Assembly (NCBI GenBank): GCA_051294375.1
Contig: JBJCIZ010000423.1
Location: 1 to 32,880 of the forward strand
Length of the DNA stretch: 32,880 bases
Source: Paraspadella gotoi
Taxonomy: Eukaryota; Animalia; Chaetognatha
Reading direction: 5' to 3'
Below, in pieces: positions 1,549-27,080 of the stretch (within the stretch, counting starts at the first letter, position 1; each line of letters begins with the position of its first letter). The notes beneath the pieces were generated by a model. That model searched no databases. It was not told where the DNA came from and saw nothing but the letters and a program-made list of their open reading frames with translations. The position numbers and the translations under genes were made by a program.

Positions 1549-4500
1549 AAATCAGGCAGTGTGTATGAGATAGGCAGGAGAGGAAGGAGCATGGGCGTTA
1601 ACCTGGAGGTCTTTTTAGAATCAGGCAGTGTGTATGAGATAGCAGGGAGAGGAAGGAGCAGGGCGTTAACCTGGAGGTCTTTTTAGAAAATCAGGCAGTG
1701 TGTATGAGATAGCAGGGAGAGGAAGGAGGCAGGGCGTTAACCTGGAGGTCTTTTAGAAAATCAGGCAGTGTGTATGAGATAGGCAGGGAGAGGAAGGAGC
1801 AGGGCGTTAACCTGGAGGTCTTTAGAAATCAGGCAGTGTGTATGAGATAGGCCAGGAGAGGAAGGAGCAGGGCGTTAACCTGGAGGTCTTTTTAGAAAAT
1901 CAGGCAGTGTGTATGAGATAGGCAGGGAGAGGAAGGAGCAGGGCGTTAACCTGGAGGTCTTTTAGAAAATCAGGCAGTGGTGTATGAGATAGGCAGGGAG
2001 AGGAAGGAGCAGGGCGTTACCTGGAGGTCTTTTTAGAAAATCAGGCAGTGTGTATGAGATAGGCAGGGAGAGAAGGAGCAGGGCGTTAACACTGGAGGTC
2101 TTTTTAGAAATCAGGACAGTGTGTATGAGATAGGCAGGAGGGAAGGAGCAGGGCGTTAACCTGGAGGTCTTTTAGAAAATCAGGCAGTGTGTATGAGATA
2201 GGCAGGGAGAGGAAGGAGCAGGGCGTTAACTGGAGGTCTTTTTAGAAAATAGGCAGTGTGTATGAGATAGGCAGGGAGAGGAAGGAGCAGGGCGTTAACC
2301 TGGAGGTCTTTTAGAAAATCAGGCAGTGTGTATGAGATAGGCAGGGAGAGAAAGGGCAGGGCGTTAACCTGGAGGTCTTTTTAGAAATCAGGCAGTGTGT
2401 ATGAGATAGGCAGGGAGGGAAGGAGCAGGGCGTTAACCTGGAGGTCTTTTTAGAAAATCAGGCGAGTGTGTATGAGATAGGCAGGAGAGGAAGGAGCAGG
2501 GCCAGTTAACCTGGAGGTCTTTTTAGAAAATCAGGGCAGTGTGTATGAGATAGGCAGGGAGAGGAAAGGAGCAGGCGTTAACCTGGAGGTCTTTTTAGAA
2601 AATCAGCAGTGTGTATGAGATAGGCAGGGAGAGGAAGGAGCAGGGCGTTTACCTGGAGGTCTTTTAGAAAATCAGGAGTGTGTATGAGTAGGCAGGGAGA
2701 GGAAGGAGCAGGGGTTTAACCTGGAGTTTTTTAGAAAATCAGGCAGTGTGTATGAGATAGGCAGGAGAGGAAGGGGCAGGGCGTTAACCTGGAGGTCTTT
2801 TTAGAAATCAGGGCAGTGTGTATGAGATAGGCAGGGAGAGGAAGGAGCAGGGCGTTAACCTGGAGGTCTTTTTAGAAAATCAGGCAGTGTGTATGAGAAT
2901 AGCAGGGAGAGAAGGAGCAGGGCGTTAACCTGGAGGTCTTTTTTAGAAATCAGGCAGTGTGTATGAGATAGCAGGGAGAGGAAGAGCAGGCGTTAACCTG
3001 GAGGTCTTTTTAGAAAATCAGGCAGTGTGTATGAGATAGGCAGGGAGAGGAAGGAGCAGGGCGTTAACCTGGAGGTCTTTTTAGAAAATCAGGCAGTGTG
3101 TATGAGATAAGGCAGGGAGAGGAAGGAGCAGGCGTTAACTGGAGGTCTTTTTAGAAAATCAGGCAGTGTGTATGAGATAGGCAGGGAGAGGAAGGAGCAG
3201 GGGTTAACCTGGGTCTTTTAGAAAATCAGGCAGTGTGTTGAGATAGCAGGGAGAGGAAGGAGCAGGGCCGTTAACCTGGAGGTCTTTTTAGAAAATCAGG
3301 CAGTGTGTATGAGATAGGCAGGGAGAGGAAGGAGCAGGGCGTTTACCTGGGAGGTCTTTTTAGAAAATCAGGCAGTGGTGTATGAGATAGGCAGGGAGAG
3401 GAAGGAGCAGGGCGTTAACCTGGAGGTCTTTTAAAATCAGGCAGTGGTGTATGAGATAGGCAGGGAGAGGAAGGAGCAGGGCGTTAACCTGGAGTCTTTT
3501 TAGAAAATCAGGCAGTGTGTATGAGATAGGCAGGAAGGAAGGAGCAGGCGTTAACCTGGGTCTTTTTAGAAAATCAGGCAGTGTGTATGAGATAGGCAGG
3601 GAGAGGAAGGAGCAGGGCGTTACCTGGAGGTCTTTTTAGAAAATCAGGCAGTGTGTATGAGATAGGCAGGGAGAGGAAGGAGCAGGGCGTTAACCTGGAG
3701 GTCTTTTTAGAAAATCAGGCAGTGTGATATGAGATAGGCCAGGGAGAGGAAGGAGCAGGGCGTTAACCTGGAGGTCTTTTTAGAAATCAGGCAGTGTGTA
3801 TGAGATAGGCAGGGAGAGGAAGGAGCAGGGCGTTAACCTGGAGGTCTTTTAGAAAATCAGGCAGTGTGTATGAGATAGGCAGGGAGAGGAAGTAGCAGGG
3901 CGTTAACCTGGAGGTCTTTTTAGAAAATCAGGCAGTGTGTTAGATAGGCAGGGAGAGGAAGGAGCAGGGCGTTAACTGGAGTCTTTTTAGAAAATAGGCA
4001 GTGTGTATGAGATAGGCAGGGAGAGGAAGGAGCAGGGCGTTAACCTGGAGGTCTTTTTAGAAAAATGCAGGCAGTTTGTGTATGAGATAGGCAGTGAGAG
4101 GAAGGAGCAGGGCGTTAACCTGGAGGTCTTTTAGAAAATCAGGCAGTGTGTAGAATAGGCAGGGAGAGGAAGGAGCAGGGCGTTAACCTGGAGGTCTTTT
4201 TAGAAAATCAGGCAGTGTGTATGAGATAGGCAGGGAGAGAAGGAGCAGGGCGTTAACCTGGAGGTCTTTTTAGAAAATCAGGCAGTTGTGTATGAGATAG
4301 GCAGGGAGAGGAAGGAGCAGGCGTTAACCTGGAGGTCTTTTTAGAAAATCAGGCAGTGTGTATGAAGATAGGCAGGGAGAGGAAGGAGCAGGGCGTTAAC
4401 CTGGAGGTCTTTTTAGAAAATCAGGCAGTGTGTATGAGATAGGCAGGGAGAGGAAGGAGCAGGGCGTTAACCTGGAGGTCTTTTTAGAAAATCAGGCAGT

Positions 4501-6324
4501 GTGTATGAGATAGGCAGGGAGAGGAAGGAGCAGGCGTTAACCTGGAGGTCTTTTAGAAAATCAGGCAGTGTGTATGAGATAGGCAGGGAGAGGAAGGAAG
4601 CAGGGGCGTTAACCTGGAGGTCTTTTTAGAAAATCAGGCAGTGTGTATGAGATAGGCAGGGAGAGGAAGGAGCAGGGCGTTAACCTGGAGGTTTTTTAGA
4701 AACAGCAGTGTGTATGAGAAGGCAGAAGAAGGAGCAGGGCGTTAACCGGAGGTCTTTTTAGAAAATCAGGCAGTGTGTATGAGATAGGCAGGGAGAGGAA
4801 GGAGCAGGGCGTTAACCTGGAGGTCTTTTTAGAAAATCAGGCAGTGTGTATGAGATAGGCAGGGAGAGGAAGGAGCAGGCGTTAACCTGGAGGTCTTTTT
4901 AGAAATCAGGCAGTGTGTATGAGATAGGCAGGAGAGGAAGGAGCAGGGCGTTAACCTGGAGGTCTTTTTAGAAATCAGGCAGTGTGTATGAGATAGGCAG
5001 GGAGAGGAGGAGCAGGGCGTTAACCTGGAGGTCTTTTTAGAAAATCAGGCAGTGTGTATGAGATAGCAGGGAGAGGAAGGAGCAGGGCGTTAACCTGGAG
5101 GTCTTTTTAGAAAATCAGGCAGTGGTGTATGAGATAGGCAGGGAGAGGAAGGAGCAGGGCGTTAACCTGGAGGTCTTTTTAGAAAAATCAGGCAGTGTGT
5201 ATGAGATAGGCAGGGAGAGGAAGGAGCAGGGCGTTAAACCTGGAGGTCTTTTTAGAAAATCAGGCAGTGTGTATGAGATAGGCAGGGAGAGGAAGGAGCC
5301 AGGGCGTTAACCTGGAGGTCTTTTTAGAAAATCAGGCAGTGTGTATGAGATAGGCAGGGAGAGGAAGGAGCAGGGCGTTAACCTGGAGGTCTTTTAGAAA
5401 ATCAGGCAGTGTGTATGAGATAGGCAGGGAGAGGAAGGAGCAGGGCGTTAACCTGGAGTCTTTTTAGAAAATCAGGCAGTGTGTATGAAGATAGGCAGGG
5501 AGAGGAAGGAGCGGCAGGGGCGTTAACCTGGAGGTCTTTTAGAAAATCAGGCAGTGTGTATGAGATAGGCAGGGAGAGGAAGGAGCAGGGCGTTAACCTG
5601 GAGGTCTTTTTAGAAAATCAGGCAGTGTGTATGAGATAGGCAGGAGAGGAAGGAGCAGGGCGTTAACCTGGAGGTCTTTTAGAAAATCAGGCAGTGTGTA
5701 TGAGATAGGCAGGGAGAGGAAGGAGCAGGGCGTTAACCTGGAGGTCTTTTTAGAAAATCAGGCAGTGTGTATGAGATAGGCAGGGAGAGGAAGGAGCAGG
5801 GCGTTAACCTGGAGTCTTTTTAGAAAATCAGGCAGTGTGTATGAGATAGGCAGGAGAGGAAGGAGCAGGGCGTTAACCTGGAGGTCTTTTAGAAAATCAG
5901 GCAGTGTGTATGAGATAGGCAGGGAGAGGAAGGAGCAGGGCGTTAACCTGGAGGTCTTTTTAGAAAATCAGGCAGTGTGTATGAGATAGGCAGGGAGAGG
6001 AAGGAGCAGGGCGTTAACCTGGAGGTCTTTTTAGAAATCAGGCAGTGTGTATGAGATAGGCAGGGAGAGGAAGGAGCAGGGCGTTAACCTGGAGGTCTTT
6101 TTAGAAAATCAGGCAGTGTGTATGAGATAGCAGGGAGAGAAGGAGCAGGGCGTTAACCTGGAGGTCTTTTTAGAAATCAGGCAGTGTGTATGAATAGGCA
6201 GGGAGAGGAAGGAGCAGGGCGTTACCTGAGGTCTTTTTAAAAAATCAGCATGTGTATGAGATAGGCAGGGAGAGGAAGGAGCAGGCGTTAACCTGGAGGT
6301 CTTTTTAGAAAATCAGGCAGTGTG
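1549..6324. repeat. Tandem satellite, 71-bp unit, about 68 copies
   Basis: Consensus AAAATCAGGCAGTGTGTATGAGATAGGCAGGGAGAGGAAGGAGCAGGGCGTTAACCTGGAGGTCTTTTTAG repeated head-to-tail; differences between copies are almost all 1-nt indels. Confidence 0.98.
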
Positions 6325-6720
6325 GCGGGGTGGGGGAAACGAATTGAGGTGTCAAATTGGCCTCTTTAATAATCAGTAAATTAATAAGGAAGACTCATTA
6401 CAATGTTATATACGCATAGGAAATGCCAAACCGAGACATTCTAATCCGACTATCAGTAATTTATATAAATTTTACAGTTGCATAGATATACTTGGTCAAG
6501 GTCAGTCTTCTTGTCGCAAGTCGTAGATGTTTGCCGCTTACATATATATTAGTATTATTAAATTATAATTAAATGAATGAGTTTGCTTAAATCCTTCTCC
6601 AAGTATTAATTCGGTTTATATATTAAAAGTTTTTTACCGCTGACAGTGGAGAGCTATGGTAGTCGTTATCCAATTGTTAGTAAACTATAATTAAATTATA
6701 AGACGGTGTCAGAATTTGAG

Positions 6721-7030
6721 TCCATCTGTCTCAAATTGAGACAGTGGATTCAATACAAAATGGTCCAAGTATGGCCAACAGCTGGGTTGCCTGTGATGCC
6801 CATTGGGATGGGGCATCTCACTGTTGGCTTTGGGGGCTTCCGACCCTCAGTGACGCCTCCAGTCACTGGCGCGGTTACCCTAGGACGGTCTCGCTTTGCC
6901 AACGCAGAGGGAAGTCGTTAGGACTGTGGATGGAACACTACGCCTGGGATGGTGTGTTCCCCCTCTGAGCCAATGGATTTGGCTGACGATGGTGTGGACG
7001 TGAGGCGGTGTGAATATACCGCCACAAAGT
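6721..7030 (-). mobile_element. Highly structured GC-rich short element carrying a twister ribozyme
   Basis: GC-rich island in AT-rich DNA with many hairpins. Minus strand has A-box-like TGGCTCAGAGG and B-box-like GTTCCATCC upstream of the twister. Boundaries are approximate. Confidence 0.55.
6823..6903 (-). ncRNA. Twister ribozyme, P5-type permutation
   Basis: Minus strand reads GUUGGC-AAA-GCGA-GA-CCG-UCCUAGGG-U^AA-CCGC-GC-CAGUGAC-UGGAGGC-GUCACUG-AGGG-U-CGG-AA-GC-CCCC-AAA-GCCAAC. P5 6 bp, P2 3/4, P3 7 bp, P4 3/4. Pseudoknots T1 CCG/CGG and T2 GC/GC are perfect. Catalytic GA and U^AA present; predicted cut between 6877 and 6876. Confidence 0.85.
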
Positions 7031-9186
7031 ATTTATATCCTACAATCGGATCATCGACACGGGCTCGTTTCCCGATGACATGGCATGGTCCGTTTCGAAA
7101 ATGATTTATCCAATCAGTCCTCGGCGGATTTCATTCGTTTTCTATTTGGCCCGGAACGAGGATTTCGGTTTTTACCGTCGATATCCGTCGGACTAATGAT
7201 TAGTACTACGTAGTTCAAATCTTATGTTAGCCCACTTTTTCGCTCGTTAAGGGACCAGTGATAAAATGATATCATAAGCTTAAGGGTCTATCATTAAAGG
7301 AATTCGAATGGTGATAGTCATTAATTTTTTCTTCGCGCGGGAAAGTGGAGAAAAAATTCCCATCTCCTTGTTGCAATTCGAACAGGACGAGATATTTATT
7401 GGAAAATTTTTTAATTGATCTCCCCTAAATACTGATACCCTCCATTCTCTTTACTTTCACTTGGGAAGTCATTTTTCCATGAATTCGAATTTTTATTTTT
7501 TAATGCAGAAAGCTGAATTCTTGGGTCTGGGCCTCCTCTGATAAAGGATTTTAATAGTGATATCATCTCCTTCATACACGCACAGGAAAGGACAGAAAAA
7601 AAAGGTCAAATCCCTCTTAAAATTCAAACAAGGATGTTCATTTCATTTGGTAAACATTTCTCATGCCCTATGTGATATCTTTCCGTTTCGTTGACTGTAG
7701 TTTGCAACAGATTTAATTTTAGGAGAGATAAAGAGCGCTTCCCTTCTTCTCATACTTGTATTAATGTTGGAGGTTACGTTTCTATCCAATTAGTGAATTG
7801 ATTTGAAAATAAAAATGATTTAAAATTTATCCTTACCATAATTTTTTAACTATTCCCAATTTTTTTCCTTTTTTTATTTTTTGAAGAAAAAAAAATAATC
7901 AGCGTACGAGGTGGCCCCGACGGAAAGTGATGAACTCAACATCGTACGGAAAAGACTGGACTAATTCCAACAATAAAATGGAGATATTGATGCTAAAATC
8001 TTATTATAAAGTTAGTAAATAGTGAATGAATAAAATTTAACTCTTAACCAATATTTTTAACAGAAATAGAAGACGACCAGCAAAATACGTCTGCGAGGCT
8101 AATGAATTTCAAAATCAAATTTATAATAAAATTGAAAATGCATATTGGTTCATTATATTTTTTTTCCTTTCTCTCTCATTTCTATCTCACTCGTTTGTAA
8201 TAAAATTTCTAATAAAAAGAATTCAATGACAAAGTGTTCGCCGTCGTTCTTCATCTTTTCGTCATCGGTTTGAGAGAGAGAGAGAGAGTGAGTTGGTTTT
8301 GTCTTCGTCTTCACAGTCAGTTTTCATCGTGTCGTTTTCACGATTTCTTTTCTAAAATTCTTTCCGAATAGGAGTCTACGTCGTTTCTTAGAAATCGAGG
8401 AAGACTTTTTCAATGGAGATTTTTGTTAAAATCTGACTACCAAATAATGTCAACGCCCCTGGGAAAAATTCAGATGAAAAATAGATGTTAAAAACACTCG
8501 ATTCCGATCCTGTTACATCTCAAGGGCTCGCATTTTTTTCTCTGACAAATAACCATCATTTTGACATCAAACCATCCGATTCAAATGGACTGGTCCGCTC
8601 GGGAAAATATTTTTGACGCAATTTTTATATATAAAATAAAGGGATTTCTCAACTTCAATACAATGTCAACGCATTTAAGGTATGTTGTCATTTTACAATA
8701 AACTTCAAATTCAGGAATCCAATAGCCATATGTCTGAAGGGCTCTCAAAATTTTTCTTTACATTTCATTTGGTTATTTTAATATGATACGATCATGGTAA
8801 AGTGAATTAGTCCATTTTTGGTAATTTTTTATTTAAAGTAAAAGTAAAAGAGGAGCTAACGATCGGAATTCTAAGAGTTTTCAACCGGGAGTTTAGATCG
8901 GAAAAAATCTTAATATGGGCGAAAATCTTCCAAAGAAGGGGTGGATTTTCCAAAGATTTGGTTAATATTTTCTATATTTATGGTCGGATTTTTTTGAAAC
9001 TTAAAAATAGCAATATTGCCATCATTCTACATTGGCCGGTCAAAGATATATTAAAAAAACCTCTGACTTTGTTCGTCAGAGCTTAGTCCTATTCGAATCT
9101 AAAAAAAAAACCAAATTTAGAAAATATTGGAAGACCCGGTAAATCCAGTGATTATTCTATGAAAGTTCGTTCAATTTAAACGATGA

Positions 9187-9228
9187 CTCTCTCTCTTTCT
9201 CTCTCTCTCTCTGTCTCTCTCCTCTCTT
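9187..9228. repeat. (CT)n microsatellite
   Basis: Seen directly. Confidence 0.85.
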
Positions 9229-9242
9229 TAACTTACACACAG

Positions 9243-9537
9243 TTTCGTCGTCGTCGTCTTCACCGTCGTCGTCATTATCACCGTCATTTTCGTCGTCGTT
9301 TTCGTCGTCGTTTTCACCGTCATTTTCGTCGTCGTTTTTGTCATCTTTTTCGTCGTCGTTTTCGTCGTAATTTTCGTCGTCATCGTTGTCTTCGTCGTCA
9401 TCGTTGTCTTCGTCGTCATCTTACGTTGTTTTTGTCGTCGTCTTCATCGTTTTCGTTGTCGTTTTCGTCGTCGTCTTCGTCATTGTTTTCTTTGTCGTTT
9501 TCGTCGTCGTTTTCATCGTTTCGTTGTCGTTTTCGTT
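9243..9537. repeat. (CGT)n/TTTTCGTCGTCG compound microsatellite
   Basis: Seen directly; explains ORFs 9183-9710 and 9228-9419. Confidence 0.9.
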
Positions 9538-9591
9538 ATAATAAATTTATAGGCAATTTGGTTTCAGTTTACAACAAATTTTTATTTCAAA

Positions 9592-9642
9592 GAAACGTTT
9601 CAAAACGTTTCGGCTTTGAAATGCAAGCCTTCATCAGCGTAG
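9592..9642 (-). ncRNA. Minimal type I hammerhead ribozyme motif (Penelope-like)
   Basis: Minus strand ACG-CTGATGA-A-GGCTT-GCATTTCA-AAGCC-GAAACGTT. Core and 5-bp stem II intact, palindromic ACGT stem III; stem I poor. Confidence 0.6.
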
Positions 9643-9714
9643 ATATGCAAGTATCTTCGCCGTTCGTGGCAATTTTCTTATATATTTTTATATCGATCGA
9701 TAGGAAATGATGTC

Positions 9715-9945
9715 AATATTCGCATTGCAAAATTTCAAGTCAATCGGTCAACGCGTTTAGAAATCGGCAGGCACAAAACCCGCCGTTTTTTCATCCCCTC
9801 TTCGCAAAACAGATTCGCCGATTCGAAAAATAATTTTTTTGGTTCTCACTAAACGTTTGAACTAGCGCTCGCTTCGTAGTTCTTTTTATTTAAGCGCGAG
9901 CGATCGAAGCGGCAGAGGCGGTAAACTAAAAAATGCGCGTTTGGG
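9715..9945. mobile_element. Probable non-autonomous Helitron/HINE (DINE-like) remnant
   Basis: AAATTTCAAGTCAATCGGTCAACGCGTTTAG motif and the inverted pair GCGCTCGCTTCG / GCGCGAGCGATCGAAGCG resemble such elements; recognised by pattern only. Confidence 0.35.
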
Positions 9946-10579
9946 TCCTTAATTATATTTTTTTGCTTTTTAAAGAATTATAAATAAATGAATTTGAAGA
10001 TCAAATAAGAGGAAAACTCAACTTAAATTAACTCTCCACTCAAATTAAACTAATAAATAAGCATGTGAATGGGAATGGGAATTAAAGTATAAAACATATT
10101 TTGTAGATCCTCGTCACAAATAATAGAATTCTTTTCTTATTGTAGAACTTACCCGAATCGCAACAAAATTATCATAAATTCGGTCATTTTCCTCTCTCTC
10201 TCAATCGCGCCGTTTTCTCTTTTCCCTCCCTCAATCAAACTTACCCTAATAATTCACGCGGTTTCATCTCTCAGGTCATCGTCATATTCATATGAAGATT
10301 CATGATCGTTTTATGCTCAGCAAGAGATAGTCGCCGATATCAACCAGTTTTTCTACAAAACAAAACGTAGGTACGTTACATAAACCCAAAACAATAATAA
10401 ATATAACAATATTAAAAGCAGATTATTAATTGATTATGACGTGAAAGGAAATGAGAGAAAAACAAATATTTTTGTTTTTAATTTAAAATTTGGATGATCC
10501 GCCGGAAACAAAATACGAGTCTCTGATTGGTCGAATTGTAGTCGGGCATTGCATATATAAGCATGACACCTTCAGTCGT

Positions 10580-10870
10580 GACCCGGTGGCTCATCGAGTA
10601 AAGCCATCAGCTCATGACCACTAGGTACCGGGTTCAATCCCAACCCGGTACCTACCCTGTGGGATGCGTGAGGACGGCCGGAAGCTGCCTTGGGGGCGTG
10701 GAAAACCCTCAAGCCTGGTTCAAAGCCCAGGACCCGTTCCTTGGCTGCTAGAGGGGGTTAAAGAAGTTCTTCAGCCCCACTTAGCGCTTTATCCACAGAA
10801 CAACCAATGGAACAGGCCTGTGGAGAATGCCCTTACCTCTGATTCCATTGTATAAATAGCCAACGTTTTT
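10580..10870 (+). mobile_element. tRNA-derived SINE-like element with internal twister ribozyme
   Basis: A box TGGCTCATCGAG (10587-10598), CT-CAT-GA anticodon-like loop, B box GGTTCAATCCC (10631-10641), twister fold, 3' hairpin CAATGGAA/TTCCATTG, T5 run at 10866-10870. Confidence 0.75.
10659..10737 (+). ncRNA. Twister ribozyme, P5-type (partly degenerate)
   Basis: P3 CUUGGGGG/CCCUCAAG, P4 CCUGG/CCAGG, L4 U-UCA-AA-GC. T2 GC(10687-88)/GC(10725-26), T1 UGA(10669-71)/UCA(10720-22), P5 GUGGG/CCCGU. The conserved A of GA is missing, P2 is imperfect and the cut site reads G^AA. Confidence 0.7.
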
Positions 10871-11706
10871 GTATTGTTTCACTGACACCGTCCATGCTTT
10901 CTCTATCAAAAAGGCGAAAACCGCCAATGACTGAAGCTTCACTATAGTGGGTTGATAGGTTATTTAAGATATTTGTTGTATCTGCTTATGAGCAGATTTC
11001 GGCTCTATAATTCACCTGGTCGGTCTTTCGCTCCCCCTCGGTAAGTTACTTATATCATCTCTGAACATCGAATTATCAAAAATTATGCAAAGCAAAAGAT
11101 GTCCATCCCCCCTCAGCTTAAAGTGTTAATAATTAATTACTGATGATTAGAATGGACGATTTACTCGAAGTTTATTGATTGGGATAAAAGTTAGGAGATA
11201 CAGCTGGAAAACGAATTTTGATGAAATCGTGAAAGTGGAAATAAGTTTAAATGATAAAGATACATTTCACTATTTCATTTTCCTTTTTTCTCTTTTATAT
11301 GGAAAGAAGTTACAACTATTTATTAATTTGTTAAATATTTGATTAATTAATTAATCATGCATATTGTTTATTTTTAATTATATATGAGCAAACGGAAAAA
11401 CATAATAAAATGGAGAGAAAAAAAACAAAAACAGTTAATTAAATAAAATTAATTAATTAAAAATTGTTATTTTGTAAAAAAAGGAACAAGTTAATGCAAG
11501 ATATATGTTACGCCGCAAACTCACGAAGCTGTTTCCCTTCTACGGCCGGATGGATTCGGAGACTTGGTTTGACAAACGGCAAACTATGTTTGAATGTATG
11601 AAGCAACGTTTTGCCAAATGAATTTGATATGAAAAATCTTAAAAGTATAGTGATCTCGCCAGACCTTACTATCAAAGAAAATTAATGAAAAAGTACTATA
11701 ATCTAA

Positions 11707-12072
11707 TTTGCAAGTTGAAAAAATTATGCAAGTTTAAAAATTATACAAATTGAAAAATTATGCAAGTTGAAAAAATTATGCAAATTAAAAAAATATCAAG
11801 TTAAAAAAATTATGCAAGTTGAAAAATTATGCATTAAAAAATTATACAAGTTTAAAAAATTATGCAAGTTTAAAAAATTATGCAAGTTAAAAAATTATGC
11901 AAGTTGAAAAAATATGCAAGTTGAAAAAATAATGCAAGTTGAAAAAATTATGCAAATTGAAAAAAATTATGCAAGTTAAAAAATATGCAATTGAAAATTA
12001 TGCAATTAAAAAATTATGAAATTAAAAAATTATGCAAGTTAAAAAAATTATACAAGTTAAAAAAATTATACA
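11707..12072. repeat. AT-rich minisatellite, ~18-19 bp unit AAAAAATTATGCAAGTTG, about 20 copies
   Basis: Seen directly. Confidence 0.92.
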
Positions 12073-12389
12073 ATATTATATACTGCAATATGTAAATTAG
12101 ATTAAAGCATTTCTATATACTAATTTGGATATTATAATGAGTACTATAATTCATTTGCATATTGCAATAAATCATAATGAAGTGGAAATTCAAACAAAAA
12201 ATACTTAAATCCAAATGTAATAAGAAAATATCAAAGCTATTTAAGATGAGAAGCCATATCTAAATTTTTAACTTACTTTTGCACACTTTTGTAAAATTTA
12301 TCATAATTCATAATAATTTTTATTTTAAAAAAAATGGTAAGTCACAGCCAAACCTATAAAAGCATAGTAGATTTTATATAAAAACAGCG

Positions 12390-12590
12390 TGACGACGACA
12401 ACGACAACGTCACAAAGAAGCTCACCCGAAACAAAATCAAGCCTGAACCGACTTCGCCGGTCATGGCTCGATAAAAATGCAAAATTACTTGTTTCACTAC
12501 TATCTTTATTTAAATATATTATTATTTAAAGGTATGGGAGAAAAGACGGACAGACAGACAGATGGACAGACAGATGGACAGACAAATGTT
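12390..12590. mobile_element. Possible HINE/DINE-like remnant
   Basis: Hairpin ACCG-ACTTCGC-CGGT near 12447-12461 and (GACA/GATG)n tetranucleotide tract at 12545-12585. Confidence 0.3.
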
Positions 12591-13356
12591 TAAAGTTTTT
12601 GATATCAAACGACAGCTTAAACAAAGGAGATTCTGACTGCATTGTTTTTTAAGAGATATGTTGTTCACATATTATCGAATAAACCAATCTTTTTAGTTTG
12701 AATTCTGACGGCATTTATGTATTTAACTGTATCTTGAGAGCATTAAAAGATTTTGCATTAATTTTTATACATAACATTCACGGAGTAATGACCTAGGATG
12801 AGAAACAATAAAAAATGAAAAAATCAATAATGAATTTTTTTTTAACTGCATAGTTTATTCTACGAGACTGTACATCGCGTCATATCGGCATTCGAGGCGT
12901 CGTCCGTCCCTTGAATGTGTAACATAGGCTCTTTATGAATGTAAGCTGAATGATGGCGAAATTGATGAATAAAAAGTGGGGAAGAACATTTACAAACTTT
13001 ATTTTTAGTATTAATATCCATAAACAATCCCGTAAAACTCGTTGAGGACGGGCGATGCTATTTAGAAATTGGCAAAACAACGTACTAAATGTTTATCCTT
13101 AGTCTCGCCAAATTACAACTCAGAGAAAGACAGAATATCGACAAAGACCAACAAAAGACTGGTAAACGTATTGGCCGAATTCGTGAGGACAAATTAATAA
13201 CGATCAAAACTAAGAAATAACCGAGCCGAGGCATAATATTTGTCAACCGGTTTAGATAATCGTTTAGTAAAAACCCAATTGCATTGATAAATTTAAAAAT
13301 AACTTTGTACCATCTTTATAACGGTTGACTGTCTAATAAACATTTATTTTACTAAG

Positions 13357-13537
13357 CAATTTATGATAACATTTTCTTTGTTTCCACAAAGAATTTTTAA
13401 TGGAAAAATCACAGACATGTTTTGGTCTTAAATTAAATCATCAGTGTGATGAAGGTCTGAAATTTAAGGCAGAAACATGTCCGATTTTTTCATAAAAACT
13501 TCGTTGTGAAAACGAACAACTTTTCTTATATCAAATT
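13357..13537. mobile_element. Inverted pair of Penelope-like pseudo-LTR fragments, each with a degenerate hammerhead
   Basis: Diverged ~85-bp inverted arms centred near 13445. Minus arm CTGATGA..AAGACC-AAAACATGTC; plus arm GTGATGA-AGGTCT..AAGGCA-GAAACATGTC. Confidence 0.6.
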
Positions 13538-13852
13538 CTGAAACCAACGAAAAAGAAAAATATACTAATTTACGAAGCAAATATATTTTTATTTATTAAC
13601 CTCTAAATACAATTACATGGATGGCATTAAATAAAAATTTTCATACTTAATTTTATAAAAAAATTTATATAAATTGTTAGTTTAAGATGCAAACGGTTAA
13701 AGCGGATTGAAAAAACTACTAAAAAAAACTACATATAATGTCATAATTTTTCACAACAAAATCCATTGTATTAAACCTTTCTTTTGTTGTTTGTTGAGAT
13801 TAATTAAAAACGAAAATTTTTGTGGAACAACAATAAAGTTTTTTATTAACTT

Positions 13853-13891
13853 TGGACATGTTTCGGCTCACAACTCAAGCCTTCATCAACA
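13853..13891 (-). ncRNA. Minimal hammerhead ribozyme motif with C3-to-U change
   Basis: Minus strand TG-TTGATGA-A-GGCTT-GAGTTGT-GAGCC-GAAAC-AT-GTC-CA: stem II 5 bp, palindromic ACATGT stem III, GUC triplet, 2-bp stem I, followed by AATAAA. Confidence 0.6.
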
Positions 13892-14439
13892 TCCATATTT
13901 TTATAAAATAAGTCTGGGGCGACTTTAAATATCGAATTTTAATGACAATCACAAGAAATATTATAAGGATTGAAAATTCTAATACTTCATTAACGTCATG
14001 AAATCTTTGATTCTAGAAATCGGCTGCTCTGACACAAATTAACTTTTCTTGGACAAAGAGAAACAATAAATGTTTGTGCCTCTGTAGTTTTGATCACGTT
14101 GGCTGACTTTAGTTCTTATTTAAATAACGTTCAGTTTTTGGAACAGGTTGGCGAGTTTATTTATCAACAAACAATTTGGCGACGAGGAACGGAGATAAAA
14201 TGTTTGTTTCATAAAAATGAGGTGTGAAATTAATTCTTTAATTTCGAGATTAAAAATATAAAAACGTGAGTATAAAATCAATTAAAAATAAACCCCAACG
14301 GCGAGTTAAAAACGTTAAACGTTCTAGAGGCAACGACTTTCTCTCTCTCTAAAACATTGCTAAAGTTAAAAATAAGACGGATACCAATTGTCCCCCTTTT
14401 TCCCCCCCTTTTCTTCGCGACTGAATCAGTTGTAAAACT

Positions 14440-14576
14440 TTTCCCTATTATTTGGGCCGTCTCGATCGCGATTTCGTCCGCCGGTGACTCCGCGGACGTT
14501 GAACTTTCATTCCGCGCGGGAACGCACGCGTCGGCCGCCACGAGCGTCAAAACAATAAATATTTTCAATTTTGCAT
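14440..14576 (-). CDS. Possible first exon of a secreted protein (signal-peptide-like)
   Basis: ATG at 14576 plus one indel gives MQ.LKIFIVLTLVAADACVPARNESSTSAESPADEIAIETAQII; GC-rich coding-like composition. Confidence 0.35.
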
Positions 14577-14603
14577 TTTGTTTTAAAAAAATTGCAAACC
14601 ATT

Positions 14604-15185
14604 TTAAATGTAAGATTCGCAGTCAATTGTGATGTAACTGTATGAGGTTAGCTTTTTTAAATGCTCATTAGTCAATTCTTTACGTGTTGTCATGAGCGTT
14701 GAGACGGAATATTTTGTCCGTGTCGCTGATCCGAAACAGAACGTCTTCACGGCCTGCCCCCAAGACGACGTCCCGCAGCGGAGGACGACGAACCCTTTTG
14801 TCGGCCTCGTGTTTGTTGAAGACGTCGGGATCCGCGATAGAGAGCTGCGTGGCTTCATCATCGTCTGCAGGCTGTGGAGCGTCGCGGCGGACGAGAGCAA
14901 AACGGTAACTTTGGAGGCCGTCTGGCATGTCCCGTCGACTGGTCGCAGGGCATCCATCTCGCGCCGCAGGGCTTGAAGCAGTGCATCGAGATCGGGCGGC
15001 AGCACGCCGTCCGGGACAAATTTGGCGGGTTGTTGAGAAAGAAGTCCCGTATCTTCCGTGCCACTTCTTCATTCAAGGGCGTGACAACATGGCGATTAGA
15101 CCTTGCCAGAAAATTTAAAGTTTTTGATATAGCTCCTCAGTGAGTCCTCACTAATGACCATATTTTTTATAATAATCCTCATTGA
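14604..15185 (-). CDS. Frameshifted, intron-containing gene or pseudogene with a Gypsy Gag-like N-terminal segment
   Basis: Joining frames gives SNRHVVTPLNEEVARKIRDFFLNNPP..LPPDLDALLQALRREMDALRPVDG..MPDGLQSYRFALV..REDVLFRISDTDKIFRLNAHDNT|YITIDCESYI*. A 46-nt GT-AG intron at 14683-14638 with a CTAAC branch motif keeps the frame. Confidence 0.55.
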
Positions 15186-16125
15186 AAAAAATTTACAGAA
15201 AATACTGAAAAACTGAAAAATTAGGGTATTTCTTTCATATCTTAAATAGTATTAATGATATATGAAGGTAGGGGTAGCCCAACTCAATGGGAAAAGTTAA
15301 AAATTTAGAGCGAGTACATGCTCAAACGAATATTTAAAAATTTTTAAGAATACTTTCAATGGACAAAAAATTTTTAATTTGGCTTTATACTTTAGTAATT
15401 AGTTTTTTAATATTTATTTATAGATAGAAAAGGCCAAAAAATTTTTTATAATTTTTAAATTTTAAGACCAGATTCAGATAGTTCATAAAAAGTATAAAGT
15501 ATAATTCTTTTTAAATATTTTTATAAGTGTGTCAAAAATAAGAAAAACCGTAAAAATCATCATCTTTCAATGATTTTATCAGTTTTTTTATATTTTCACT
15601 TAGAAAATGTAAGAATTTTTAAAAGCTGTAATTATATTTCTTGTTTAACTTTTTATGCTCTATCAGAATTCATCAAAAAATTTTAGGATTTATACAGACT
15701 ATAGTATATAGTAATATAATATTTTTAATTAAGCGAGTACCCTCAGAAGAAAGTATTTTTGACAAAAAATATTTGAATACCATAATCTATGGTCATGATA
15801 GAGTATTTTAACGCTGTATACATTAGCAATTAAATTTCTTCGGCTATGTCTAATGAAGGAAACCAGTTTTAATCTTTAAAGCATCAAAAACTGTACATGT
15901 TAGATATCTTACTTGATGAAATGGAGACTAAATATGGATGGATGTCTTGCATTTAATTTATATTTTATTTTTAAAAAAATTTTAAAAATATAGATTAAAA
16001 CATTGTAGTTTCATTATCTAATCTTTATTCTTATGTTTGGAAAAAACAGTAAGAAACAAAAATGATAAATTTTGAGAAAAATTTTTTTATTAATTGCTAT
16101 TATTTTATGGTGGATTAAAATCCAC

Positions 16126-16325
16126 GAACCGTTCATCAGTGGCCATTGGTGCCGGAGGCAAGTCATTCGCCTCCCAACCCAAAGGTCCGGGATTCTAGCC
16201 CTGTGGCCGCCTAGCAGTTTAGAGGGATGGGGCGCTTAACCCGCCTGTAACACGGTGTTACAGCCTGATCCGAAGATCAGGGACTGCTTATATTGAACGG
16301 TTCTATCACTAACTCATAACAATAA
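16126..16325 (+). mobile_element. tRNA-derived SINE-like element with internal twister ribozyme
   Basis: Cloverleaf remnant 16141-16209: GGCCAT/GTGGCC acceptor, A box TGGTGCCGGAGG, CT-CCC-AA loop, degenerate B box GGATTCTAGCCC. The twister follows immediately, then a short CTAA/CATAA/CAATAA tail. Confidence 0.75.
16213..16288 (+). ncRNA. Twister ribozyme, P5-type
   Basis: AGCAGU-UUA-GAGG-GA-UGG-GGCGCU-U^AA-CCC-GC-CUGUAAC-ACGGU-GUUACAG-CCUGA-U-CCG-AA-GA-UCAGG-G-ACUGCU. P5, P3 and P4 perfect; T1 UGG/CCG. P2 is one nt short and T2 has a C-to-A mismatch. Predicted cut 16237/16238. Confidence 0.8.
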
Positions 16326-16785
16326 TTACTGTCTCTTCAATTTCTTACTATGACGTCAATTTATTTTTTTTGTTATGCGCTTGAAAAATAGGCTAAACCC
16401 AATAGAATCGGAATAATTGCATGACTACCATATATTTATTTGACATATACAGTAAATACAGCAAAATAAAAAAAATTCAAAAAGAATTATGACTAAGCGC
16501 TGCATTTATTTTCAGTATTTTTTAATCAAGAACCTTTATGGATTTTCTTGGTTCCGGCTGCATTGGATAGCCCAAACGATTCAGTTTCAGCAACCATCCA
16601 TGGTCTTGTAATATTTACTGCACTACTGGTGCAAAAATTGCTAAGAACCAAAACTATCAAAAAACCACTTCGTTCTTTCGGTTTTTTTCTAAGAGCGGAG
16701 TAACATACCTAACGTAACAAGAGATCGGCGTTGTTCGTCCAAAAGTTGGGGAGCTTGACTCACCCCATTGAGTGTGGTTACCCCT

Positions 16786-17295
16786 ATCTAAGTAGACGAA
16801 AATGACGGGGAGGCCCCGACAGACCGAATCCATGAGGCGATGGAAAGCTTGAGCGCCGTTCTTCAGGCCAAACGGCACCCGCAGGTACTCTATGAACCAA
16901 AAGGAGTGATTATTGCCGTCTTCGGGATGTCCGCCGGCGCCACCGGTATCTGATGATACCCTTTGAGAAGGTCGATCATTGGTCATGCCCGCCAAATCGG
17001 CAGAGAAATCGTGGAGGTGTTTAACCGGGTAGCGGTCATCCGTCGTCACTGCGTTAAGGCGGTGGTAATCACCACAGGCGCGGAAACCGCCATCGGACTT
17101 GGAGAGGCGACGCCCATGGACATGACAACGGGCGGTCGATGCCAAGCCGCTTCAATTCGGCGGACTCGGCCTTCGCCACCGCCAGCTTCTCCGTCGTGCC
17201 CTCGCGAAAACCGGGTGGCCTTGAGTCGGGATGTGATGAACCACGCCGTGCCCCAGCGCGGTGGAAGAGAACGTGGGCATCGTGAGCTCCGGACA
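16786..17295 (-). mobile_element. Ty3/Gypsy LTR retrotransposon pol fragment (reverse transcriptase), frameshifted and truncated
   Basis: Motifs across frames: [93 protein letters not shown] (cut at the YxDD motif). Confidence 0.93.
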
Positions 17296-17599
17296 ATCTG
17301 TCAAATCGGGCTCACCATTAAAGGAGCACTTATTATTGAAAACGTAAAGTTTACTATCTGGTAATAAACATGAGCGACAATTGAAAATTACAGAATTTAT
17401 ATATATCGCGATCGGACCTGATCGATCGATCCGGTTGTTTGTTTAAATGTACTAACTTACATTTAACAATTGGCTAAATGCAGTAAACCCTTACAATATA
17501 CATATTGAACGAAAGGTAGCACTGAGCAGTTTCTAACAATACAATGATAAATATTGTACATTAAATATTTCAAACGTAAATACTAAAAACGTATCAAAT

Positions 17600-21344: not shown

Positions 21345-23750
21345 AACAATTTAAGAAGCCCCATAAATACCAATGCATTTTAGAAAAGTCTCCTGATACC
21401 TGCAAGTTTCTTGTTGCCAAATTTAGTGGAGAAAACGAATACACAATAACAAATTTCCCCGAGGCTCTTTTGGATTTTCCCACGCCAGTTTTGCGTCGTA
21501 CCACTTCCGGTTTTAAAAATTCAAAATTGTTTAGAAAAAAATGAGCTGTTATTCAGCCACAGTACTTAAATTAATCAAAATAAAGTTATTAATAACCCTT
21601 AATGCCTCATTTATTGTTGTGGTGTTATAAAGTAAGGTTAAAAATTATTATTAAACAAAAGACTTAAAATTAGAATTATTCAGTTTTTTTTTAAGCCAAA
21701 TCGTGCCTGACTGGTGGGAATGATTCCTGGAGGGTTTCCTCATTTCGTGAGAAACATTGTTGAGCAGCTGCTAATTTCGACTTAATATTAAACTCAATTC
21801 ATATAAATCAAAAGATAAAATAGAATATGACTTTAATTAGTTTTCAATATCCCATAATCATTGCGAAAGACGTGCATCAGAATGACATGAGAGCTAATAA
21901 CGCAGCAACAATAGCAGTAGAACCGAATGCCAGCAACAGTAGCACAGAGCCAAAGCAAGCAACCATAGCAGCAGAAGCCACACGCAGCCGACAGCTCAAC
22001 TACATAAAAAGCCATAAGAATTAATTTACCATACACTTCAACTAATTTCACAAATATCATTAATACCTTGATGGTCTCAGAGGCAATCTCCGAAAAATTA
22101 AGATTTACATCTCCCTTTTTATATACAAGGACACGAATTAATTGACAACCAATGAGAAGAGATTCACATTTTAAGAATAAGATCAAAACATTCTACCTAT
22201 TATTATTATACCAATGTAGAGAACCAGATAATCAAATTCAAGTATAAATTCAACCAATAGAGACATTAACAGAAGTATTGGAGTCATCAATTAAAACTTT
22301 AAACCAGATTATTTAGAACATTAAAAAATAAAGGTCAGGGCTCAAACTTCAGAACAAAAGCTTTATAAACTCTTTAAACTGACCAAATTCAATAAGATTG
22401 TTAAGAAAAGTTAGATTTGGTATACAATAAACTCTCTAAGGGATTTAAATTATAAATACTTAAGCCAATAATTGGCCTTCTAAAGTTTGCCAATGAAGCA
22501 AAAAGAAAGTAGCTAATTAGATAAAAGGCTTAGCCTTGGGCTAGCAACCTCGCACTCAAACAACACCCAGTCACCCTTAACCCCTCCCCCACACCTAAAC
22601 ACTTAGCTCATCCTTTATGTCATTGCAACCTCAACCCTTATCTTAATGTTCCCAGGTACAAGATAGAACCATAAGCTAACACAAAATATAATTTGCCAGG
22701 TTTCCTAGTGATTAAGTGCAATATGGAACCAGCTCAGAAAAAGATAAAAGCTTGTTAAGTTAGGGAAGCTATTGGAGGAAGAAATTAAGATTAAATGTTT
22801 AGCCTTAATTTAATGCCAGGAGGCAGGGATCCTGAGTTGAGGCTCAGAGGTGAAAACACTCAGCGGATGAAGGTGTTGTGGAAAGTCTCTTAAGTGATGC
22901 AGGGTTAGGTTCTGCATGATATAAAAAGGAGCCTAGGTTAGGGTTAGGGCTAAGGAAGTGGCTCTCTGCAGATGTACAAGCAGGAACTGTAACGAGTTTG
23001 GATCCAGGGACTGGTTTGGGGTTGAAGGGTTCAGCAGGAAGTAACCTAGCTTGGGTTAAGGTTAGGGGAAAGGTTGCTCGGTAAGATTCAGACTTGGGTC
23101 GAGACAGAAAAGTTCACAGTAGGGTTTAAGGGCCTAGGTTAGGTAGATATCCAAGCTAGGTTTGTTTAGGGCCGGTTTAGGGTGAGGTTAGTGAGAGGCT
23201 TGCTAGCTGCCAAAGAGGCCGAATTCGCCTTCCATCTTATTCGTCTACTATTAATTTTGCTCAACTTGTAAACTTTTTTAAAGGTCAATATCTTGTTTAA
23301 AAAGATTAAAGATTGTAAAATCCCTTGACAGTTCTATTGTGTTAAACCAGATAGTAAAAATTTTGTATTAAAAATTAGTGAGTAGTTTGATTCAGGCCAT
23401 TTGCGCTTAAAAAATTATAAATTTTAACTTGAAGCCTTTTGTAATGAATATTTATAACCTAATTTAATATAGAAACTAAAGACAAAGAAATGTAATATAA
23501 GGTATTGGTAACTTTTACTTTTGATTAATTTAAAGTTCATGCTGGCTGAAACAGCTCATTTTTTTCCAAAAACCTAATTAAACCGCGAAGTGGTACGCAA
23601 AAACAGCGTGGAGATCCATAATGAGCGTGCCAGAATAAAAATTTTAGTTGGGTGATTTCGATTTTCTCGCACTGAAAATTGGCACACAAGAAACTTTGCC
23701 AGGTATCAGGAACTTTCATAAAATGATGATCATTTGGGAGGTCTATAAAT
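21345..23750. mobile_element. Element bounded by diverged ~370-bp inverted repeats (foldback/DNA-transposon-like)
   Basis: 21345-21712 is the diverged reverse complement of 23390-23750, e.g. TCCTGATACCTG, AAAAAAATGAGCTGTT, TAAATTAATCAAAA, GTACCACTTC. Confidence 0.7.
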
Positions 23751-25869: not shown

Positions 25870-27080
25870 GGAATTGTAGGAAGTTGAGAGAAGGGAGAGA
25901 CAATGTGGACGGAGAGAGAGAGAGAGAAGAGAGGGAGGGTAGTAGAGAGAGAGAGATGAGAGAAGAGAGAGTAGTTGCTGGTTTAGTAAATGTGGAATGG
26001 AGAAAAATGGAGAAGACAGTGAGAAAGATGGAGAAGGAGAGAGAGATAGTTCTGGTTTCGTAATTGTGGAATTGAGTGAATGAGAGACAGTGGAGAGAGA
26101 GAGAGAAGAAGAGAGAGAGAGAGAGAGAGAAAGAAGGGAGGGAGAGAGAGAGAGAAAGAAAGAGAGAGGAGATAGTTGCTGGTTTAGTAATGTGGAATTC
26201 GATAGAATGAGAGACAGTGGGAGAGTAGAGAGAGAGAGAGAGAGAGAGAGTAAAAAGAGAGGGAGGAGAGAGAGAGAAAGAGAGAAAGAGAAGAAAGAGA
26301 AAAGAGAGAAGATAGTTCTGTTTAGTAATTGGGGGGAATTGGAAGAGAAGGAGAAGACAGTGGAGAGAGAGAGAGAGAGAGATGAGAGAGAGAGAGGATA
26401 GTTGCTGGTTTAGAGTAACATTGTGAATCTGCAGCAGAATCGGAGAGACAGTGGAGAGAGGAGAGAGATGAGAGTAGAGAGAGGAGATAGTTGCTGTTTA
26501 GTAATTGTGGAATTGAGAGAAGGAGAGAACAGATGGAGAAGAGAGAGAGAGAGAGAGAGAGAAGAAGAGAGAGAGATAGTTTGCGGGTTTTTAGTAAATG
26601 TGTGAATTGAGAGAATGGAGAGACAGTGGAGGGAGAGAGAGAGGAGAGAAATAGTAGAGGGATGGGAGAGAGAGAGAGAAAGAGAAGATGAGAGAAGAGA
26701 GCTTAGTTGCTGGTTTAGTAATGTGGAATTGGAGAATGGAGAGACGTGGAGAGAGAAGATGAGAAGAGAAGAGAATAGTTGCTGGTGTTATAAATTGGTG
26801 AATTGAAAGATGGAGACAGTGGAGAGAAGAGAGAGAGAGAGGAGAGAGATAGTTGCTGGTTTACGTAATTTTGGAATTGAGTAGGAATGGAGAGACAAGT
26901 GGAGGGGCAGAGAGAGAGATAGAGAGAGAGGAGAAGAGAGAGAGGAGAGAGAAGAGTAGTTGCCTGTTTTAGTAATTGTGGGAGTTGATTAGTATTGGAT
27001 GCGACCAGTTTGGCAGAGAGAGATAGAGAAGTAGAGAGAGCAGTACGAGAGAAAGAGAGAGAGAGAGGAGATGAGAGAGC
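25870..27080. repeat. Composite satellite: ~50-bp core alternating with variable (GA)n, about 11 units
   Basis: Core TAGTTGCTGGTTTAGTAATTGTGGAATTGAGAGAATGGAGAGACAGTGG recurs every ~75-140 bp. Confidence 0.9.

Follow-up and report, generated by a model that had tools for sequence, protein, structure and literature searches.

What kind of element places a self-cleaving ribozyme directly behind a tRNA-like sequence? The question is raised by contig JBJCIZ010000423.1 of the chaetognath Paraspadella gotoi (assembly GCA_051294375.1), of which we analysed a stretch of 32,880 nt, hereafter the window (33 kb). The original prediction held that three short GC-rich elements fold as type-P5 twister ribozymes, a class that reportedly goes back to Roth et al. 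in 2014, and that they belong to tRNA-headed SINEs. The observation of the folds and of two heads largely holds, and the elements are putative rather than established SINEs.

Exactly three sites in the window match a descriptor of the type-P5 twister: E1 (6903-6823, minus strand), E2 (about 10659-10740, plus strand), and E3 (16213-16288, plus strand). Both descriptors used were composed after these sites had been seen and were compared with local shuffles. The first, which required P3 and P5, gave two strict and three relaxed matches, against shuffle means of 0.03-0.06 and 0.19-0.22, and the window counts were reached in 0 of 150 shuffles with either block size. The second gave three matches against a shuffle mean of 0.34 (three were found in 0 of 120 shuffles). 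Stripped of P3 and P5, the core does not reach significance (shuffle means of 1.2 strict and 4.4 relaxed). All three folds have their termini in P5 (5-7 bp), a P4 of 3-5 bp, and a P2 with 3/4, 2/3, and 2/3 positions paired in E1, E2, and E3. They share the catalytic G and the following A, the N^AA cut site, and the U-NNN-AA-G loop, E2 doing so in the re-read register given below. The pseudoknots form 5/5 pairs in E1 and 4/5 in both E2 and E3, and none of the three ribozyme copies is free of flaws. MAFFT failed to align them, and P3, P4, and P5 differ in sequence while remaining paired, as had been proposed. The retention of the loop, also proposed, is borne out in all three, with an A-U instead of a G-C closing pair in E3.

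Rfam twister models gave no match at the gathering score in scans of the whole window and of the local regions. The best was a partial twister-P1 match on E1 only, scoring 15.2 bits where the gathering score is 67.2. The lack of significant hits to these models had been named beforehand as grounds for rejection, and none was significant. We do not take this as fatal, because the descriptors match more often in the window than in shuffles, and published tails of Naiad retrotransposons preserve this layout as well; the form found here would then be one that current Rfam models miss. A reference set of P5 twisters gathered from viral contigs (32 loci) was abandoned, as most loci looked like chance by eye and the real ones were too few for a model. 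The failed Rfam search, the post hoc descriptors, and the non-significant core would all fit chance folds in GC-rich islands. We regard this explanation as highly improbable, given that none of the 150 and 120 locally shuffled windows gave three matches and that the ranking of tRNA matches and the enrichment in palindromes, both described below, are independent of the fit to the fold. Three predicted type-P5 twister folds are confirmed in the window by these comparisons.

The ribozyme of E1 (minus strand) has P5 of 6 bp, P2 of 3/4, P3 of 7 bp, P4 of 3 bp, a loop at 6843-6836, catalytic G6890 and A6889, a predicted cut at T6877^A6876, and both pseudoknots fully paired (3/3 in the 3-bp and 2/2 in the 2-bp one). 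Upstream of it lies an array of hairpins (6905..7030, fold z -4.8) that is not tRNA-like and has no Rfam match; the tRNA covariance model and the A/B-box test found no tRNA head in E1. The segment further upstream (7030..7129) has a CCAAT-like box at 7117-7110 and a TATA-like box at 7037-7030. Three short motifs of this segment are collinear with the upstream part of E2, with a chain score reached by 17 of 2000 shuffles. In the 3' region of E1 (6702..6822), a helix (6828-6820 / 6782-6774) competes with P5, the first T4 run is at 6760, a hairpin spans about 6716-6753, and the tail motifs 6760-6751 and 6712-6702 are common to E2. The minimum-energy fold of the E1 monomer lacks the ribozyme core (z -0.8).

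In E2 (plus strand), an upstream segment (10497..10579) with a CCAAT-like (10523-10530) and a TATA-like motif (about 10553-10560) precedes a tRNA-derived head (10580..10653). The A box of this head (at 10587) has two mismatches and its B box (at 10631) fits the consensus exactly. Its present fold consists of two long hairpins, one of them a perfect 13-bp stem (10622-10654). The twister that follows has P5 of 5-6 bp, P2 of 2/3, P3 of 8 bp, and P4 of 5 bp. The original prediction had a covarying 3-bp pseudoknot in all three elements; this stands for E1 and E3 (3/3 each), but the UGA/UCA pairing given for E2 requires that the conserved A after the catalytic G be missing. We prefer a register 2 nt downstream that keeps both residues (G10670 and A10671), with a predicted cut at G10681^A10682, GGA/UCA in the 3-bp pseudoknot (2/3, with one A.G), and 2/2 in the 2-bp pseudoknot. 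A.G is a better-tolerated type of mismatch in twister pseudoknots. The 3' hairpins of E2 (10741..10892) include the first T-run at 10866 and the tail motifs shared with E1 (10867-10876 and 10882-10892). The monomer's minimum-energy fold lacks the ribozyme core (z +1.2). A candidate long terminal repeat in E2 was unconvincing (135 of 3000 shuffles were as good), and a tRNA-Ser called by ARAGORN at a lowered threshold (10663-10740) is the E2 twister itself.

The head of E3 (16139..16212, plus strand) has CCC in the anticodon position, is Gly-like, and carries one mismatch in its A box and two in its B box. The ribozyme has P5 of 7 bp, P2 of 2/3, P3 of 8 bp, P4 of 5 bp, catalytic G16226 and A16227, and a predicted cut at T16237^A16238. 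Its 2-bp pseudoknot forms only one of two pairs; this is the mismatch-sensitive pseudoknot of twisters, and the E3 ribozyme is likely to be impaired. The element is flanked (16126..16307) by a 10-bp inverted repeat (16126-16135 / 16294-16303). It can equally be read as a direct repeat of 14 nt, imperfect and not significant as a target-site duplication.

Are the heads truly tRNA-derived? A covariance model built from 60 tRNAs of viral contigs and run with filters off gave nine matches in the 33 kb, and the best two abut E3 (14.2 bits, E 0.0056) and E2 (9.9 bits, E 0.21) on the same strand. A sequence-only profile placed the same two heads on top in reversed order (E 0.14 and 2.4). The gap between head and P5 is 0 nt in E3 and 5-7 nt in E2, in line with the claimed adjacency of tRNA and twister. 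Rfam and default ARAGORN made no tRNA calls in the window. At lowered thresholds ARAGORN called the E3 head, yet it made 2-124 calls in all and cannot discriminate; A/B-box matching alone is also weak, since 11 sites fit at the stringency of E3. Neither E2 nor E3 has a T4 run ahead of the tail (first T-runs at 10866 and 16364), and Pfam found no match in frames overlapping them, which indicates short, non-coding elements. The covariance model and the profile confirm these heads as real but weak. The pairing of a tRNA head with a P5 twister had been thought undescribed, and our literature search likewise found no description of it. The twister fragment might also be an inert passenger or a middle body, carried either by ordinary SINEs that LINEs mobilise or by one-off chimeras. 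The flaws in every ribozyme copy, in E3 at the mismatch-sensitive pseudoknot, and head scores of just 10-14 bits would suit this explanation. We nevertheless consider it improbable, because three unrelated sequences have all kept the catalytic G, the A that follows it, and base pairing in P3, P4, and P5, and two different tRNA heads lie at almost equal distances from the twister.

A further feature, absent from the original prediction, concerns P1. In all three it is a fully self-complementary linker of 6-8 nt (E1, 6878..6885, minus strand; E2, 10675-10680; E3, 16231-16236), against 1 of 41 shuffle matches of the second descriptor, which did not require self-complementarity; the E2 register was picked after its palindrome had been noticed. 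Duplexes between the linkers of two copies have predicted energies of -8.3 to -11.0 kcal/mol, the latter for E1, where 8/8 positions pair. The linkers form no predicted hairpin in isolation, and closure of a linker on itself over a 4-nt loop would allow two pairs in E1 and one each in E2 and E3. In a pseudoknot-free model, E2 is the only element whose minimum-energy dimer pairs via the linker; those of E1 and E3 do not. That P1 is palindromic nevertheless points to two copies cleaving together. Penelope hammerheads, which have a short palindromic helix, are likewise proposed to act as dimers (PMC4209133). P1 is dispensable in tested twisters. In natural ones, P1 flaws do not lower cleavage (PMC11662667), and monomers may cut well despite a short P1.

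This last point bears on the mechanism first proposed for these elements, in which Pol III SINEs carry a twister that cuts as a monomer and detaches the tRNA head at a point 25-28 nt beyond it, leaving ends suited to RtcB ligation or circles. It draws on the abutment of heads and ribozymes, on the tolerance of natural twisters to P1 flaws, on animal retrozyme RNA circularised by RtcB (PMC7229834), and on Sm-alpha singles described as losing their promoter. Yet after cleavage by a single ribozyme one fragment bears the 2',3'-cyclic phosphate and the other the 5'-OH, and no tandem arrangement is present at E1-E3 (0 of 40 tandem-repeat rows overlap them). One twister per copy parts the two reactive ends, and a lone copy therefore cannot circularise, contrary to what had been proposed. 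All three copies also still hold the sequence 5' of the predicted cut site, and the inserted form was therefore uncut there. Monomer cleavage leaves the retained heads and the palindromic linkers (3/3) unexplained, and we judge it unlikely.

How, then, might such elements have moved? The little primary similarity noted at the outset applies to the three ribozymes but less so to the ends of E1 and E2, which have collinear motifs in common (0 of 600 shuffles overall). Their tail chain was matched by 0 of 2000 shuffles, for segments selected after the matches were seen, and plain local alignment of the tails by 36 of 3000; E3 does not clearly have this tail (56 of 2000). The shared motifs precede the head and follow the T-run, and they would fall outside a simple Pol III transcript. 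No second copy of any element was found in the 33-kb window or in pattern scans. The tail pattern and two head patterns had no matches in viral sequences. The E2 pattern had two metagenome matches, both in unrelated GC-rich sequence without similarity to the window, and one head pattern had seven genome-contig matches, of which the three tested resembled the window in nothing but the motif. Candidate target-site duplications are unconvincing: among 3000 random pairs, 299-922 equalled the score of the flanking direct repeats (10-15 nt, imperfect), which do not exceed chance. Three minimal hammerhead cores of the Penelope type occur in the stretches between E1, E2, and E3, which themselves contain no type I hammerhead, and these cores suggest that Penelope-like elements were formerly active in this genome. 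Pfam searches of 140 frames found no remnant of a Naiad or Penelope protein, the only retroelement match being an RT fragment, and six short motifs had no informative match to published Naiad consensuses.

The tails of Naiads, a group of Penelope-like elements, offer a parallel. Examined by eye, 8 of the 54 tails listed in the supplement of Craig et al. 2021 (PMC8557442) showed the P5 twister layout in five, namely in 5/5 bivalve tails and in 0/3 of the others. In the bivalve tails the order of elements is that of E1-E3, P2 has three positions, P3 runs directly into P4, and two self-complementary stretches occupy the position of P1; in three mussel-type records P2 consists of two pairs and a mismatch, as in E2 and E3. 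None of the five has a tRNA directly ahead of the twister. That study reports Naiads without canonical hammerheads and does not mention twisters. It also describes Naiad insertions as frequently 5'-truncated. E1-E3 might accordingly be pseudo-LTRs, the 5'-truncated ends left by autonomous retrotransposons of Naiad type, with an internal tRNA-type promoter in some, rather than separate SINE families. Such truncation, the position of the twister layout near the 3' ends of bivalve Naiads, and the E1/E2 CCAAT/TATA-like and tail motifs outside the span from tRNA to T-run all agree with this possibility. The absence of a Penelope RT or GIY-YIG remnant beside any element, and of a tRNA directly before the twister in those bivalve tails, makes it rather unlikely.

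We favour, with evenly balanced confidence, the reading that E1-E3 are decayed, short, non-autonomous retroelements that depended on Naiads or other Penelope-like elements, took their twister from a Naiad tail, and cut mainly as dimers. The tRNA head would act as Pol III promoter, transcription would stop at the first T-run, and two copies would jointly build P1 in a domain-swapped dimer of the kind described for minimal Penelope hammerheads. An RNA on its own would retain its promoter and return to the genome intact, presumably through the Naiad reverse transcriptase and endonuclease, and tandem or paired RNAs would be cut into units whose 5'-OH and cyclic-phosphate termini RtcB could ligate. 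Part of this reading, and an even call as well, is that the elements are the twister counterpart of schistosome Sm-alpha. The stronger statement, that several families of tRNA-headed SINEs were moved by Naiads and not by LINEs, with a dimer-gated twister sparing the promoter of lone transcripts, is only tentative.

If this stronger statement is true, these would be the first natural twisters under dimerisation control, and the ribozyme reported missing from Naiads would be supplied. A twister in the place of a hammerhead, with the same substitution of a palindrome for a helix, argues for a selected need for dimer-dependent cleavage that is independent of ribozyme class. This contrasts with the conclusion of Craig et al. 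2021 (PMC8557442) that hammerheads might be no more than parasites of Penelope-like elements. A tRNA head fused to such a twister would mean that SINEs carry ribozymes of a second class, and would strengthen the case for Penelope-type enzymes as their partners.

Theta ribozymes sit beside intact tRNAs. Among described systems, theta ribozymes (PMC10879173) resemble E2 and E3 in adjoining a tRNA and differ in being HDV-like and in residing in gut phages. Type-P5 twisters (PMC5408937, PMC10085705) agree with E1-E3 in element order, catalytic G and A, N^AA cut, double pseudoknot, and U-NNN-AA-G loop; E1-E3 differ by their 6-8-nt self-complementary linker as P1, by a P2 of three rather than four positions in E2 and E3, and by escaping Rfam models. 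The T-variant twisters of Perere-3 (PMC8501958) also lie in an animal retroelement and have a relaxed P1, but they are P1-type, at the extreme 5' end of an autonomous LINE with a target duplication beside the cut, whereas the twister here is P5-type, internal, and, in E2 and E3, behind a head. Sm-alpha is a tRNA-derived, hammerhead-bearing, SINE-like element. In Sm-alpha and Sj-alpha of Schistosoma (PMC2770079, PMC6765202), as in E2 and E3, a Pol III head of tRNA origin precedes a self-cleaving ribozyme, which is a predicted twister here instead of a hammerhead, in single copies instead of a tandem array. Naiads (PMC8557442) share the P5 twister layout, with palindromes replacing P1 in the five bivalve consensus tails as judged by eye; unlike E1-E3, they are autonomous and 3.4-4.4 kb long, with two palindromes against one and no adjoining tRNA seen. 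Finally, the minimal hammerheads of Penelope elements and the non-LTR retrozymes of animals (PMC4209133, PMC7229834, bioRxiv 10.64898/2026.07.22.740005) belong to another ribozyme class, and the retrozymes form tandem arrays and produce circles, neither being shown for E1-E3; they resemble E1-E3 in being small non-coding units with extensive base pairing, in their derivation from Penelope terminal repeats, proposed here for E1-E3, and in a short palindromic helix that implies dimeric cleavage.

Our analysis upheld the three type-P5 twister folds of the window, E1 (6823-6903, minus strand), E2 (about 10659-10740, plus strand) and E3 (16213-16288, plus strand), which are real. The search with Rfam twister models put forward in the original prediction gave nothing passing: there was no twister on the whole window, nor around E2 and E3, and the best result came from E1, where the twister-P1 model matched in part (15.2 bits, E 2.3, versus a gathering score of 67.2). 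We therefore wrote descriptors of P5 twisters, taking the layout from Table 1 of PMC8501958. With the core alone, the descriptor was not significant against shuffles. When P3 and P5 were required, it found two strict and three relaxed sites in the window, where shuffled sequence gave on average 0.03-0.06 strict and about 0.2 relaxed sites. A second descriptor, in which the catalytic G-A was obligatory and a total of one pseudoknot mismatch was tolerated, matched E1, E2, E3 and nothing else in the window, and 41 times altogether in 120 shuffles. The observed counts were equalled in 0/150 shuffles by the first descriptor and in 0/120 by the second, figures that are somewhat flattering because both descriptors postdate inspection of the elements. 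All sequence tests used one copy of each element.

The original prediction overlooked the linker, a segment that takes the place of P1 and is entirely self-complementary in all three elements (8/8, 6/6 and 6/6 positions in E1, E2 and E3, G.U allowed), as against one of the 41 shuffle matches. In the mechanism we favour, the element would be transcribed by Pol III from a tRNA head to a T-run, P1 would be made between two RNAs, and mobilisation would depend on an enzyme of the type encoded by Naiads, the Penelope-like elements of Craig et al. 2021. A twister active as a monomer would remove the head, and this mechanism would account for its presence in inserted copies. Against this proposal, tested twisters can do without P1, the linker is used in the predicted dimers of E2 only, and we found no Naiad ORF nearby. 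Permuted twisters that look genuine by eye, with longer P1 segments, also occur in three viral contigs (L007, L016 and L020).

The copies differ in condition. In E1 the two pseudoknots are complete, with one A.C mismatch each at the end of P2 and the end of P4. For E2, the pseudoknot originally predicted does form three pairs, but at the expense of the conserved A; we prefer an alternative register, in which both G10670 and A10671 are retained and a single A.G stands in the pseudoknot. The short pseudoknot of E3 has one of two pairs, and its loop is closed by A-U. In a study that tested natural twisters at scale (PMC11662667), flaws in P1, P2 and most of P4 were without effect, A.G was among the better-tolerated mismatches of a 3-bp pseudoknot, and one flaw in a 2-bp pseudoknot reduced mean cleavage from 0.76 to 0.53. 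Judged by this tolerance, E1 is most likely the copy with the best chance of being active, and E3 the one with the poorest. A downstream 9-bp helix in E1 (6828-6820 with 6782-6774, minus strand) rivals P5, whose 3' strand it is able to take, and could silence the ribozyme when the RNA is full length. Some flaws may not be biological: a 70-bp satellite that stops about 400 nt short of E1 (1549-6324, 68 copies, 94% matches) has numerous 1-base indels, which suggests imperfect polishing of the assembly, and 1-base flaws are therefore possibly sequencing errors. The window past about 26 kb has an error-rich appearance.

The tRNA heads predicted for E2 and E3 are upheld, though weak. Neither ARAGORN nor Rfam called a tRNA. 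Of 98 non-redundant tRNAs from fetched contigs, 60 went into a covariance model; run with filters off, it placed 16139-16212 (E 0.0056) first and 10580-10653 (E 0.21) second among nine matches, both full length, with weak and roughly calibrated scores. The same two came out on top with a 115-sequence profile, and each adjoins a twister, E3 and E2 respectively, on the same strand. The E2 head has lost its cloverleaf and now forms two long hairpins (fold z -6.9); E1 has hairpins where a head would be (fold z -4.8). The P4/L4 loop of E2 (10717-10727) is an exact match, one of two in the window, to the B-box motif; it could have arisen by chance or could serve as an additional Pol III box. A bacterial metagenome-assembled genome also has, in three of its contigs (L157, L159 and L163), mutually similar tRNA-headed sequences resembling animal SINE heads, which suggests that the assembly contains host contamination.

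E1 and E2 have tails that begin at the first T-run and have in common an exact 10-nt and an exact 11-nt motif in the same order (0/2000 shuffles equal), three motifs upstream (17/2000) and a whole-length motif chain (0/600), in segments picked after the matches were seen. E3 showed no clear membership when compared with the E1/E2 chains (84/600 and 19/600 shuffles). The common motifs of E1 and E2 continue past the limits of a simple Pol III transcript; this argues against the proposed mechanism and would suit a pseudo-LTR fragment just as well. Imperfect direct repeats beside all three elements are at chance level, no second copy was found in the window or in the public contigs scanned, and SINE membership of E1, E2 and E3 is not established. 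The originally predicted formation of circles from cleaved RNA does not agree with these single, non-tandem copies: as in retrozymes, circularisation requires two ribozymes per RNA, and each copy has one. We also rejected retrozyme identity, on tandem structure and ribozyme class.

The window is rich in AT and dense in repeats that suggest animal DNA, including microsatellites, one RT fragment, an 18-bp tandem array (11705-12073) and a degenerate GA-rich array with a 72-74-bp unit (25900-27080). At 22500-23230 there are many TTAGG/TTAGGG-like words on both strands, in no regular array. E3 is flanked on both sides by decayed, frameshifted retroelement coding fragments (14600-15140 and 16657-17311, minus strand), presumably Ty3/gypsy-like; the RT piece matches Pfam RVT_1 weakly (E 0.0059) and also RT clusters in the Atlas. 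There are also three minimal hammerhead cores of type I (9637-9604, minus; 13446-13481, plus; 13889-13855, minus), which are related to one another and have a palindromic stem III. They resemble those reported from Penelope terminal repeats, and in two of them the first core base is altered.

Literature searches, judged mostly from titles and abstract openings and with few subscription papers covered, turned up no account of a tRNA-plus-twister SINE, of a twister in Penelope-like elements or of a palindromic dimeric twister; such sequences could already be present in the alignments of Roth et al. 2014 or in preprint supplements. Craig et al. 2021 (PMC8557442) list 54 Naiad consensuses in their supplement, and we examined the tails of 8 of these by eye. 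All five bivalve tails among the 8 (Naiad_Scon, Mmer, Bpla, Mphi and the record preceding Bpla, which is Mgal by list order) have the same P5 twister layout, unannotated there, with two self-complementary stretches replacing P1; it was not seen in the other three (Plae, the record preceding it and the incomplete Dcar). In three mussel-type records P2 consists of two pairs and a mismatch, like E3 and the preferred register of E2. The words "twister" and "SINE" occur nowhere in that article, which describes Naiads as being without canonical hammerheads. Penelope hammerheads, according to PMC4209133, have a short palindromic helix, proposed dimers and low activity in vitro. The elements of the window would, by analogy, work like Sm-alpha, the schistosome tRNA-hammerhead SINE-like element, or like a retrozyme, with the ribozyme class exchanged.
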